From NCBI GenBank assembly GCA_003231645.1, contig QIIW01000026.1, positions 8,775 to 72,774 on the forward strand: a stretch of 64,000 nucleotides of DNA, written 5' to 3'. Position numbers and translations under genes: made by a program. The notes beneath the pieces were generated by a model. The model had not been told where the DNA came from and made no database searches. It saw nothing but the letters and a program-made list of their open reading frames with translations. This DNA is from Acidimicrobiia bacterium (lineage in GTDB: Bacteria > Actinomycetota > Acidimicrobiia > Acidimicrobiales > Aldehydirespiratoraceae). How positions within the stretch are numbered: the first letter of the stretch is position 1; each line of letters begins with the position of its first letter. Positions 14,128 to 17,063 of this stretch are shown here, in pieces.

Positions 14128-15669
14128 GTGCCCCATTCGATAGGAATCGACCTGGGAACGACCAACGTGAAGGCGGTCCTCGTGTCGGCCGAAGGTGCCG
14201 TGCTCGCCTCCACGGAACGGCCGCTGCCCACCGTCGTCGTAGGTGACACGGCCGAGCAGGATGCCGAATCAGTGTGGCACCTGGTGCTCGACTGCCTCAC
14301 CGCCCTTGTGGTCGAGTGCCCCGACAATGCCAAGAGGGTCGAGACGATCGGCGTGTGCAGCCAATACTCCTCACTCGTCGGAGTCGACGCCTCCGCCAAC
14401 CCCACCACGCCGCTGATCATGTGGTCGGATCAGCGCGGTACCGATCACTCGTGGGCAATCCTGTCCCGCCACGAGAAAGCCTTCATGACCTGGGTCGAGC
14501 ACCACGGGATCCCCCCGGTCGGCAGCGGATTGTCGCTCGCCCACCTGCTGTATCTCCAACTCGAACACCCCGGATCCCACGCCTCCGCGACCGCCTACGT
14601 CGAGCCGATGGACTACCTGACGGCGCGGCTCACCGGCAGGATCACCGCCACCCAGGCCTCATCGTTCATGCTTCAGCTCTGCGACAACCGTTCACTCGGC
14701 GCAACCGGCTATGACCCCGACCTGGTGGCCATGTCGGGAGTCGACCCGAGCCGGCTACCTCCACTCGTCGACATCGAGGGCATCGTGGGGCCGATTCTCC
14801 CGGCAGTGGCAGTAGCAACCGGGCTTCCGGCGAACACCCTCGTCGCGACCGGAACCAACGACACGGCCACGGTCGGCGTCGCTTCAGGGGCACTCACCGG
14901 CGGAGTGGCCGGACTGGCGATCGGAACCACCAGCGTGATCGTCGACACCATCGACTCGTTCGGTGTCGACCTCGATCACGAGATCGTTTCGATGCCGGGA
15001 CCCTATGGCGACGGTTATCTGGTGATGGCCGAGAATGGCCTCGGCGGCCGGGTGCTCCAACACGTCATGACCCGAATCGTCCACCCCGACGACTCGCTCG
15101 GCCACCACACGGTCGATGATCCATTCGCATCGGTCGACCTCGCGCTGGTCTCCTCCCCTCCCGGCGCCGGTGGCGTGATGTTCCTGCCGTGGCTCGCCGG
15201 ATCACTGGCCCCCAAGTCGAGCCGTGAGATGCGAGGAGGGTTCATCAACATGTCGCTCGAGACCGGCCGCGTCGACCTGGTCCGCTCCGTCACCGAGGGC
15301 GTGGCCCACAACCTCGGCCGGCTTCTTCCCCACATCGAGGCGATGACCGGTCGGATGGTCGCGGAACTCCGATTCACCGGCGGAGGCGGACGTTGCCCCG
15401 GTTGGGCGCAGGTGATCGCCGACGTGCTCGACCGGTCGGTCGCGATCGTCAAACGACCCCAGCTGGCCACCGCCCGAGCAGCCGCGCTTCTCGCCCTCGT
15501 GCGCCACGGTGCGCTCACCCGCTCCGACCTCGCCCACACCGTCGAGATCGCCACCGTCCACGATCCGATACCCCGACACCGCGCGCTCTACGATCACCGA
15601 CAGTCGCAGTTCGAGGCGTGCTTCGAAGCGCTGCTGCCCATCCACACCGCACTCGGAGGAACCCCATGA
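14128..15669 (+). CDS. FGGY-family carbohydrate/polyol kinase (xylulokinase-like)
   Basis: GTG 14128 lies 7 nt after AGGAGG. N-terminal IGIDLGTTNVKAVLV actin-fold phosphate-1 motif and FGGY C-terminal domain (MFLPWLAG...FTGGGGR). Confidence 0.85.
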   Translation: MPHSIGIDLGTTNVKAVLVSAEGAVLASTERPLPTVVVGDTAEQDAESVWHLVLDCLTALVVECPDNAKRVETIGVCSQYSSLVGVDASANPTTPLIMWSDQRGTDHSWAILSRHEKAFMTWVEHHGIPPVGSGLSLAHLLYLQLEHPGSHASATAYVEPMDYLTARLTGRITATQASSFMLQLCDNRSLGATGYDPDLVAMSGVDPSRLPPLVDIEGIVGPILPAVAVATGLPANTLVATGTNDTATVGVASGALTGGVAGLAIGTTSVIVDTIDSFGVDLDHEIVSMPGPYGDGYLVMAENGLGGRVLQHVMTRIVHPDDSLGHHTVDDPFASVDLALVSSPPGAGGVMFLPWLAGSLAPKSSREMRGGFINMSLETGRVDLVRSVTEGVAHNLGRLLPHIEAMTGRMVAELRFTGGGGRCPGWAQVIADVLDRSVAIVKRPQLATARAAALLALVRHGALTRSDLAHTVEIATVHDPIPRHRALYDHRQSQFEACFEALLPIHTALGGTP

Positions 15670-17063
15670 ACCGCACCTACCCCTACGCGGAGACCTACGG
15701 AGTCGTGCGGGGAATGCCGTCGCAGGGACGTAGTCGCCAGTCGATCGTCGATGAACTCACCGAAATCGCGGCCACCGAGGACACCCGCTGGGAGTCGGGC
15801 CGGTGTTCGGGCACCATGTATTGCGGCGATCACGATCACTACGCCTTCATGGCACAGGTCTACGAACGCTTCGCCCATGTCAACATCCTCCAGCGTGACA
15901 TGTGCCCGAGTGCCACCCGCTTCGAGGGCGAGATCATCGCCATGACCCTCGACATGCTCCACGCCGATACTGACGCCGATCTTGATTCGGAAGCCGTCGG
16001 CATGATCACCACCGGCGGAAGCGGCAGCATCCTCCACGCCGTGCTCGCCTACCGTGAACAGGCACGAACCGAGAGCGACATCACCCGCCCCAACTTCGTG
16101 AAGCCCGAGACGGCACACGTTGCGTTCGACAAGGCCTGCCATCTCCTCGGGGTGGAGATTCGCCAGGTTGGCGTCGACCCCGTCACCACCAAGGTCGACC
16201 CGGCCGAGATGGACGCCGCCATCGACGACGACACCATCGCCATGGTCGGCTCGGCGTGCAACTACGGCTACGGCACCATCGATCCGATCGAACAACTCGG
16301 GCAGATTGCTCTTGACCGAGGTATCGGTCTCCACGTCGACGGTTGCCTCGGCGGTTTCATTCTCCCGTGGGGAGAACAGCTCGGCTACGACATTCCACCG
16401 TTCGACTTCCGTGTGCCGGGTGTCACCACGGTCTCGGCCGACACCCACAAGTACGGCTACGGCTTCAAAGGCACTTCGGTGCTGACCTTTCGCGACAAGT
16501 CGCTGCGCAACGGCCAGTATTTCTACATGACCGACTGGACCGGCGGGAAGTACGCCTCGCCCGGCATCGAAGGTTCCCGCAGCGGCGGTCTGCTTGCCGC
16601 CACTTGGGCCGCGATGGTGAGCCTCGGCCGTGACGGCTACATGGGTTACGCCAGAAAAATCTTCGAAACCGCGTTCGTCATGCAGGACGCGGTGAAGTCA
16701 CATCCCGAGCTGCGCATCATCGGCGACCCCACGTTCTGCTTCAGTTTCACGAGCGACGAATTCAACATCTACCACGTCAACGATTCCCTCTCGACCAACG
16801 GCTGGCGCCTCAACGGTCAGCAGTACCCCGACGCGATCCACATGGCCGTTACCCGACCGCAGATCAGACCGGGCCTGGTCGAGCAATGGGCCGACGATCT
16901 CGGCGAAGCTGTCGCCTATGCCCACCGGCACGCCGGCGAGAAACCACTCAGCGGGGCGATCTACGGCGGGGTCGAGGGCGGACCCACCGTCGAGTCCGAC
17001 GAGTTCATCCGGGTGGTCATGGCCGACATGATGGATCGTCAGCAGGCGCTCCCCCCACTCTGA
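15666..17063 (+). CDS. PLP-dependent sphingosine-1-phosphate lyase family protein (group II decarboxylase fold)
   Basis: ATG 15666 overlaps the kinase stop (ATGA). There are long stretches of SPL-type sequence: [35 protein letters not shown] (PLP lysine) and [20 protein letters not shown]. No N-terminal TM segment. Confidence 0.88.
   Translation: [465 protein letters not shown]

Follow-up and report, generated by a model that had tools for sequence, protein, structure and literature searches.

Known sphingoid-base routes and the locus under study

In eukaryotes, sphingoid bases are degraded by phosphorylation of the C1 hydroxyl group (Lcb4/Lcb5 or SPHK1/2) and retro-aldol cleavage to phosphoethanolamine and an aldehyde by a sphingosine-1-phosphate lyase (SPL; Dpl1/SGPL1) that depends on pyridoxal 5'-phosphate (PLP), in a pathway that also includes ALDH3A2 and TECR. 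Here, we analyzed a stretch of 64,000 nucleotides from an Acidimicrobiia bacterium (contig QIIW01000026.1 of assembly GCA_003231645.1, positions 8,775 to 72,774; referred to as the window), in which the gene of an FGGY-family kinase is followed directly by that of an SPL-family PLP enzyme. The two proteins would follow the same logic as the eukaryotic route, and the lyases are homologous. However, the window kinase has the FGGY fold, whereas the eukaryotic kinases have a diacylglycerol kinase (DAGK)-like fold. Moreover, the window kinase and lyase carry no N-terminal hydrophobic anchor or signal and look soluble, their genes are operonic, and the pair has no conserved neighbour of the class-3 fatty aldehyde dehydrogenase type.

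Among the bacterial enzymes, S1PL2021/S1PL2025 of Burkholderia pseudomallei (Protein Data Bank (PDB) entry 5K1R; PMC5234717) are the closest solved and assayed relatives of the window lyase and have the same short N-terminus. They have been described as secreted virulence factors acting on sphingosine 1-phosphate (S1P) of the host (PMC5234717). In contrast, the window lyase has no signal peptide, comes from a free-living sediment member of Acidimicrobiia and is coupled to a kinase; Burkholderia was compared here by protein and by published description. The lyase of Symbiobacterium thermophilum (StSPL; 3MAD/3MAU) belongs to the same family, and its 87% and 71% identical relatives immediately precede an FGGY kinase. 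StSPL-type lyases pair with kinases of one clade (type B, see below), whereas the window combines a kinase of a second clade (type A) with an S1PL2021-type lyase. Unlike the window lyase, StSPL is longer by approximately 57 residues at the N-terminus and carries His as the phosphate-site residue.

The FGGY carbohydrate kinases (XylB (2ITM), GlpK, gluconokinase, and LsrK) have in common with the window kinase the two-domain fold, the DxGTT phosphate-1 motif, the catalytic Asp, and the GGG adenosine motif. The window kinase nevertheless falls in a separate clade and has an invariant aromatic residue (Tyr/Trp) where the GlpK-like paralogue of its own genome has Arg-Glu and XylB has Gln-His. To our knowledge, the sphBCD route of Pseudomonas aeruginosa contains neither a kinase nor an SPL, and its proteins are unrelated to the FGGY-SPL pair. 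It is likewise a bacterial route of response to and metabolism of exogenous sphingoid bases, in which sphingosine is metabolised by way of different genes (PMC11398299).

An initial annotation made from the window sequence had called the FGGY-SPL pairing undescribed. Indeed, our literature search found nothing describing this pairing or linking FGGY kinases with sphingoid bases, and no description of a bacterial sphingoid-base kinase was found. Relative to published knowledge, the locus points to a variant of the known phosphorylate-then-cleave kind of pathway, with a kinase unrelated to the known sphingosine kinases.

Structure and conservation of the kinase-lyase gene pair

The positions of the two genes are given in Table 1. 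As the initial annotation had described, the stop of the kinase gene and the start of the lyase gene overlap by ATGA at 15666..15669, and we found a GGAGGA sequence at 15655..15660, 5 nt 5' of the lyase ATG at 15666. The longest open reading frame (ORF) of the kinase is 14053..15669. The GTG at 14128 is its likely start, with AGGAGG 7 nt on its 5' side and the IGIDLGTT phosphate-1 motif four codons on its 3' side, and it agrees with the start used in the initial annotation. A kinase-lyase fusion, hinted at by the long open frames, was rejected, since the coordinates place the two genes in different frames. The match coordinates of kinase and lyase abut (gap 0) also in three other genomes (G164, G208, and G112). 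A 4-nt overlap by itself is commonplace; the pairing of this kinase with this lyase is far beyond chance, as the following comparisons show.

When the window lyase was used as the query, over 570 species genomes proved to contain a relative. Nearly all of the 80 best loci were from Acidimicrobiia. At least 3.5 kb of sequence was available on both sides of the lyase in 51 loci, and in 37 of them the kinase lay within 3.5 kb on the same strand. The kinase preceded the lyase in 21 of these loci and followed it in 16, and 25 of the kinases were of type A and 12 of type B. Co-occurrence was examined in an even sample of 251 Acidimicrobiia genomes, in which the lyase was called at 41% identity or above and the kinase as either type A or type B. 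The lyase was present in 55 genomes and the kinase in 54, and both were present in 52 (Fisher exact p = 1.4e-47 for the 2x2 table 52/3/2/194, in a test that ignores phylogeny). In these genomes, 47 of the 57 lyase genes were located within 3 kb of a kinase gene, mostly within 250 bp, and the linked pairs included kinase-upstream, kinase-downstream, and divergent arrangements. Because gene order changes among the linked loci, selection rather than inertia is favoured as the cause of the linkage. In five genomes (G203, G180, G240, G239, and G151), the two genes are unlinked yet both kept.

The pairing was also found outside this class. In other Actinomycetota classes, a kinase was present within the available 1.5-kb flanks in 6 of 9 lyase loci. 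The StSPL sequence was rebuilt from an alignment and then used as the query to find its relatives, and an FGGY gene was located 3-170 bp from the lyase in all six loci of this type that were inspected (L117, L118, L120, L122, L123, and L124). The lyase of L117 is 87% identical to StSPL, that of L118 (from a Symbiobacteriaceae metagenome-assembled genome (MAG)) is 71% identical, and that of L120 is an Anaerolineaceae MAG protein. When the kinases of these three loci were compared, they were of type B and 46-51% identical to the type B kinases of Acidimicrobiia. By these comparisons, the pairing is present in no fewer than three phyla: Actinomycetota, Bacillota (Symbiobacteriaceae), and Chloroflexota. 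The partner of wide distribution is type B; type A forms a sister clade in Acidimicrobiia and goes with S1PL2021-like lyases. The initial annotation had named a lack of conserved linkage as evidence against its proposal. What we observed was near-perfect co-occurrence and adjacency in Acidimicrobiia, with recurrence in other Actinomycetota, Symbiobacteriaceae, and Chloroflexota.

The genome containing the window is a 2.9-Mb assembly with 96% completeness, and the closest relatives of the window are MAGs of Acidimicrobiia/Acidimicrobiales. Among sequencing runs, the stretch was found in one DNA run (a sediment metagenome) and in no RNA run. A promoter and terminator consensus scan gave nothing above shuffled sequences.

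The lyase

The window lyase matched S1PL2021 (5K1R) over its full length with E=3e-176, and 254 of 455 residues (approximately 56%) were identical. StSPL (3MAD) matched with E=1e-116 and 42% identity, yeast Dpl1 and human SGPL1 with E of approximately 1e-89, and the Legionella SPL with 3e-60. In the same PDB comparison, glutamate decarboxylases matched only with E=3e-24. Validated SPLs thus match far better than decarboxylases, and the enzyme is a member of the SPL family. Its Pfam match is Pyridoxal_deC, and the NCBIfam models for MfnA (215 bits) and glutamate decarboxylase (139.5 bits) both scored under their cut-offs. No signal peptide and no anchor were found in the protein. Residue 5 of the window lyase aligns with chain residue 59 of StSPL, which agrees with the earlier statement that the membrane anchor to the endoplasmic reticulum is missing, and all three peptide blocks that had been quoted in aligning the protein with S1P lyases are present in it.

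The active site was compared using the catalytic residue list of StSPL in PMC10243590 and the structure description of S1PL2021 in PMC5234717. The Schiff-base lysine K262 and the residues K268, Y52, N73, H151, D225, H261, and S304 were invariant in 80 of 80 sequences (the window lyase and 79 relatives). The PLP-binding set K262, H261, D225, H151, G117, and S304, corresponding to K311, H310, D274, H201, G168, and S353' of StSPL, was likewise invariant in all 80. Of the ligands of the substrate head group and phosphate, Y52, N73, and K268 (Y105, N126, and K317 in StSPL) are kept, and H129 of StSPL is replaced (see below). A plain decarboxylase had been named in the initial annotation as part of an outcome that would speak against it; the residues kept are those expected of an SPL active site.

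Bacterial S1P-lyase homologues are numerous, with matches to more than 6,600 protein clusters at E <= 1e-30. The genome of the window itself encodes a second SPL paralogue at C105:915..2354 (minus strand; locus L092), which is 38% identical to the window lyase and 44% identical to StSPL. This paralogue has Asn at the position of StSPL His129 and Thr at that of Ser353, and its gene sits among lspA, dnaX, and recR. SPL paralogues of similar identity occur in many Acidimicrobiia genomes without a type A or type B kinase.

The kinase

In the Pfam search, the kinase contained only FGGY domains (FGGY_N, 4.7e-32; FGGY_C, 7.5e-19), and DAGK_cat (PF00781) was not detected in it. Its best NCBIfam model was XylB with 203 bits against a cut-off of 380. 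The other FGGY equivalogs had far lower scores, among them gluconokinase (151 against 649) and GlpK (76 against 590); the kinase scored under the cut-off of every curated FGGY equivalog. The genome has five FGGY paralogues. One of them, on contig C17, reaches 439.6 bits with the XylB model, above the cut-off of 380, and another, on contig C9, is GlpK-like by its sequence motifs. The window kinase is therefore neither the xylulokinase nor the glycerol kinase of this genome, which argues against the ordinary sugar kinase that had been considered as an alternative.

In the maximum-likelihood tree, the SPL-linked kinases fell into two clades that are sisters to each other and distant from XylB and GlpK. 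Type A comprised 40 rows including the window kinase, and type B comprised 13 rows including a second gene of the same genome, on contig C3. Both clades keep the Mg/phosphate-1 Asp and the catalytic Asp as well as the GGG adenosine motif. Among the type A relatives, the phosphate-1 Asp, the catalytic Asp (in an N-D-T motif), and the GGG ATP motif were invariant in 38-39 of 39, and by these motifs the kinase is catalytically intact. The acceptor-site positions read Q-R-E-T in the GlpK-like paralogue and Q-Q-H-G in XylB, and they are invariantly Q-Y-S-S in type A and Q-W-x-S in type B. We infer that the aromatic residue replacing Arg at this site might suit a substrate bearing an ammonium group.

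The type-B-like kinase gene on C3 (C3:62811..66298; locus L091) is translationally coupled to an upstream gene for a 633-aa saccharopine-dehydrogenase-like protein. These two genes were considered as another conserved pair, and the candidate was rejected when the arrangement recurred in only 1 of 12 other genomes.

Neighbouring genes at other loci

Some genes recur beside the pair in a minority of loci. In L037 and L040, the lyase and kinase genes flank an aldehyde dehydrogenase gene; in L123, such a gene is convergent and accompanied by a GMC oxidoreductase gene. A gene with the SRPBCC lipid-binding fold lies between lyase and kinase in L056, a Glycolipid_bind gene is located 3' of the type B kinase (3810..5459) in L117, and an acyl-CoA dehydrogenase gene adjoins the lyase in L046 and L052. 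These recurrent minority neighbours pull two ways, some towards an aldehyde or lipid and others, described in the next section, towards a polar substrate. Separately, in some Acidimicrobiia genomes we observed genes of bacterial archaeo-eukaryotic release-factor-like families (baeRF family 2/10 and acVLRF1) directly upstream of the lyase, namely in L038 (6670..7959) and L079 (6860..7960). Locus L079 belongs to a cultured carrier of the pair, Salinilacustrithrix flava EGI L10123.

Proposed function and alternatives

From the sequences and their context, we infer the order of the reactions, the nature of the substrate (a lipid or a small polar amino-diol), and the roles of the neighbouring genes as follows. 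That the kinase and the lyase act in succession, on whatever substrate, is in our judgement likely. In the proposed mechanism, the FGGY-fold kinase would use ATP to phosphorylate the primary (C1) hydroxyl group of a 2-amino-1,3-diol. The SPL-family PLP enzyme would then form an external aldimine with the amine and cleave the C2-C3 bond in a retro-aldol reaction, by which phosphoethanolamine and an aldehyde would be released. We consider it moderately probable that the pair is a conserved two-gene catabolic or detoxifying module of this type in which long-chain sphingoid bases are the favoured substrates. In such a case, the base would be scavenged, and the aldehyde would pass into fatty-acid metabolism. 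In the lineage of the window, the PvdQ-type acylase encoded downstream, a lipoprotein, could free the sphingoid base extracellularly from N-acylated lipids. The only alpha-oxoamine synthase in the genome is Kbl (602 bits against a cut-off of 460), and models of serine palmitoyltransferase (Spt) scored far under their cut-offs in this 96%-complete genome. Since the genome is without Spt, a sphingoid substrate would be exogenous or scavenged. Comparative genomics lends support to the kinase-lyase route for amino alcohols or long-chain bases that the initial annotation had suggested, with a biochemical function that is predicted from sequence.

Several observations weigh against a long-chain substrate or against the strength of the case as a whole. 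We know of no characterised FGGY kinase that acts on a lipid, and those characterised act on small polyols and sugars. The StSPL phosphate ligand H129 (His-Pro) is invariantly replaced by Gln76-Arg77 in the clade of the window lyase, as in S1PL2021. The genome has one DAGK_cat gene, on contig C11 and unlinked to the pair; it says little, because the same family was matched in 13 of 14 control genomes. The exact test of co-occurrence takes no account of phylogeny, and no third conserved gene was found in more than approximately 10% of loci by all-against-all ORF clustering of the 80 loci and a Pfam tally of 98 immediate neighbours. Moreover, succinate-semialdehyde dehydrogenase is the nearest model for the aldehyde dehydrogenases inside the pair (586 bits, under its cut-off of 730), a sugar-type oxidoreductase of the Gfo/Idh/MocA family, with xylose 1-dehydrogenase and inositol dehydrogenase as best matches, is encoded upstream in five type B loci, and in L124 the start of the lyase gene is overlapped by the gene of a major facilitator superfamily transporter. 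In vitro, S1P is cleaved by S1PL2021 with a kcat of 0.015 per s and a kcat/KM of approximately 3e2 per M per s (PMC5234717), and because this turnover is very slow, S1P is perhaps not the native substrate of the lyase clade. The usual substrates of FGGY kinases, the polar neighbours, and the slow turnover would all fit a pair with the same kinase and SPL retro-aldol chemistry and a small, water-soluble substrate. Serinol, threoninol-like diols, or 2-amino-2-deoxy-alditols would be candidates, yielding phosphoethanolamine and a short polar aldehyde or an aldose. We regard this as rather unlikely, though worth keeping in mind, since we know of no abundant natural small 2-amino-1,3-diol that would explain such a wide distribution, and since lipid-type neighbours were found, namely the acylase whose gene overlaps the lyase stop in L001/L002, SRPBCC, Glycolipid_bind, and the acyl-CoA dehydrogenases. 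In addition, lyases of this family have an access funnel that is hydrophobic, and all characterised members use long-chain base phosphates (PMC5234717, PMC10243590).

Two further explanations would do away with the proposed route. The PLP enzyme could be a group II decarboxylase, or another enzyme other than a lyase, acting on a phosphorylated hydroxy-amino acid supplied by the kinase. The Pyridoxal_deC match and the sub-cut-off matches to MfnA and glutamate decarboxylase would agree with this, as would the decarboxylase fold and the mechanism up to the quinonoid intermediate, which SPL shares (PMC10243590). However, the gap between the validated SPLs (E=3e-176 to 1e-89) and the best decarboxylase (3e-24), together with the invariance of the SPL-specific residues Y52, N73, K268, and S304, makes such an enzyme quite improbable. 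The pair could also consist of unrelated neighbours, with an ordinary sugar kinase beside a lyase for environmental S1P, as the best NCBIfam model of the kinase (xylulokinase) and the fact that stop/start overlaps also join unrelated genes might suggest. This is highly improbable in view of the kinase clade in 52 of the 55 lyase genomes, its occurrence without the lyase in only 2 genomes, an adjacency that persists through changes of order and orientation and across three phyla, and the separate XylB in the genome.

Returning to the sphingoid-base module, a broader version can be put forward tentatively, although we find it somewhat doubtful. In this version, the SPL-linked FGGY clades (type A in the window, type B in several phyla) would supply the sphingoid-base kinases that are missing in bacteria. 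They would be the first in the FGGY family with a lipid amino-alcohol as substrate and would stand in for the eukaryotic DAGK-like sphingosine kinases without being homologous to them, and in the lineage of the window the whole operon would re-create the eukaryotic route from S1P to glycerolipids in one transcription unit. The lipoprotein N-acyl amidase would act as a ceramide deacylase, followed by the kinase and the lyase, and the DUF1295 protein would be the 2-enal/2-enoyl reductase (the TECR step); the PlsC-type acyltransferase would also be included.

The natural role of the numerous bacterial S1P-lyase homologues is known only for a few pathogens. Such a constant pairing with a kinase of its own suggests that the lyase receives its substrate in the cytoplasm, and with two apparently soluble proteins the function is directly testable. 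Should the substrate prove to be a sphingoid base, lipid amino-alcohols would be added to the range of the FGGY "sugar kinase" family, and the pair would show how common bacteria of soil, sediment, and sludge recycle or detoxify sphingolipid backbones. The real role of the very slow Burkholderia enzymes would then deserve re-examination.

Genes downstream of the pair

In the lineage of the window, the kinase-lyase pair heads a longer array of genes on the same strand (Table 1). The initial annotation had placed the pair beside genes for an amide-bond acylase, a hydrolase, and an acyltransferase. These are present, on the same strand, but they lie outside the conserved unit: apart from the window, only its three closest relatives (L001, L002, and L029) have the acylase, alpha/beta hydrolase, acyltransferase, and inositol monophosphatase (IMPase) genes beside the pair.

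Table 1 Features of the kinase-lyase locus and the array downstream, in coordinates of the window
Feature	Coordinates	Strand	Basis or remark
Shine-Dalgarno-like AGGAGG	14115..14120	+	Read directly; GTG start of kinase 7 nt further
FGGY-family kinase of the SPL-linked type A clade; 513 aa if started at GTG 14128	14128..15669	+	Pfam, NCBIfam, tree
ATGA stop/start overlap of kinase and lyase genes	15666..15669	+	Read in sequence
SPL-family PLP enzyme, 465 aa and stop, without membrane anchor	15666..17063	+	PDB matches, residue conservation
Perfect 15-bp hairpin, 4-nt loop, no U-tract	17071..17104	+	Between lyase stop and acylase start
PvdQ/acyl-homoserine-lactone-acylase-type N-terminal nucleophile (Ntn) hydrolase, lipoprotein signal LLATAC	17137..19617	+	Pfam Penicil_amidase 3e-126; PvdQ 5UBL 7e-126
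Alpha/beta hydrolase, GWSLGG nucleophile elbow	19614..20381	+	Pfam; ATGA overlap with acylase stop
Membrane PlsC-type acyltransferase, HX4D motif, N-terminal hydrophobic helices	20413..21411	+	Pfam Acyltransferase 2.5e-12
DUF1295 membrane protein (steroid-5-alpha-reductase/ICMT clan)	21408..22196	+	Pfam DUF1295 2.2e-75, Steroid_dh 2.8e-7 (weak); ATGA overlap with acyltransferase stop
IMPase-family phosphatase, HisN-like	22193..22981	+	Pfam Inositol_P 5.6e-48; NCBIfam HisN 242 against cut-off 275

The lyase and acylase genes of the window are separated by 73 nt, which contain the hairpin. The fold of 17060..17140 had an energy of -43.9 kcal/mol (z = -6.0), and the hairpin may be a terminator or an RNA-stabilising element. 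L001 and L002 are without it; in both, the stop of the lyase gene and the ATG of the acylase gene overlap. In the window, the acylase ATG at 17137 is preceded by GGAGGGG. The predicted nucleophile Ser266 (in SNAWAV) aligns with residue 1 of the PvdQ beta chain, as expected of an Ntn hydrolase with a Ser nucleophile, and the protein scored under the NCBIfam PvdQ equivalog (573 against 950). PvdQ-family enzymes take off long N-acyl chains. Catabolism of ceramide to an aldehyde would call for such a series, with an extracytoplasmic amidase and then a kinase and a lyase, and for this lineage the arrangement is suggestive in this respect.

TECR belongs to the steroid-5-alpha-reductase type. It is the reductase of the eukaryotic sphingosine-degradation pathway (PMC10864336), and the likeness of the DUF1295 protein to this type is suggestive as context for this lineage only. 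The IMPase-family protein was considered as a dedicated phosphatase of amino-alcohol phosphates. This candidate was rejected, because the gene is the best HisN-like candidate in the genome and hence probably encodes a housekeeping histidinol-phosphatase.

Genes upstream of the pair

Divergent from the kinase gene, a glutathione peroxidase gene is located at 13605..14078 on the minus strand. An in-frame TGA (13973..13971) coincides exactly with its catalytic position (VVNVASR-U-GFTPQY), a 7-bp hairpin lies approximately 19 nt downstream of this TGA, and tRNA-SeC is present in the genome. The gene probably encodes a selenoprotein that the ORF tracks had split in two. An ORF on the plus strand, 13635..14246, was considered as an upstream gene of the operon and rejected as an antisense shadow of this minus-strand selenoprotein gene.

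Further upstream, a D-2-hydroxyacid dehydrogenase gene at 12670..13582 (plus strand) is divided between two frames (12670..13227 and 13118..13582), which reflects either a relic gene with a frameshift or an error in the assembly. A family III CoA-transferase gene (10195..11439) adjoins the genes of a class I tRNA synthetase of the Glu/Gln type (8275..10176, minus strand) and of a methyltransferase of the cyclopropane/mycolic-acid-synthase-like (CMAS) family (6752..8101, minus strand).

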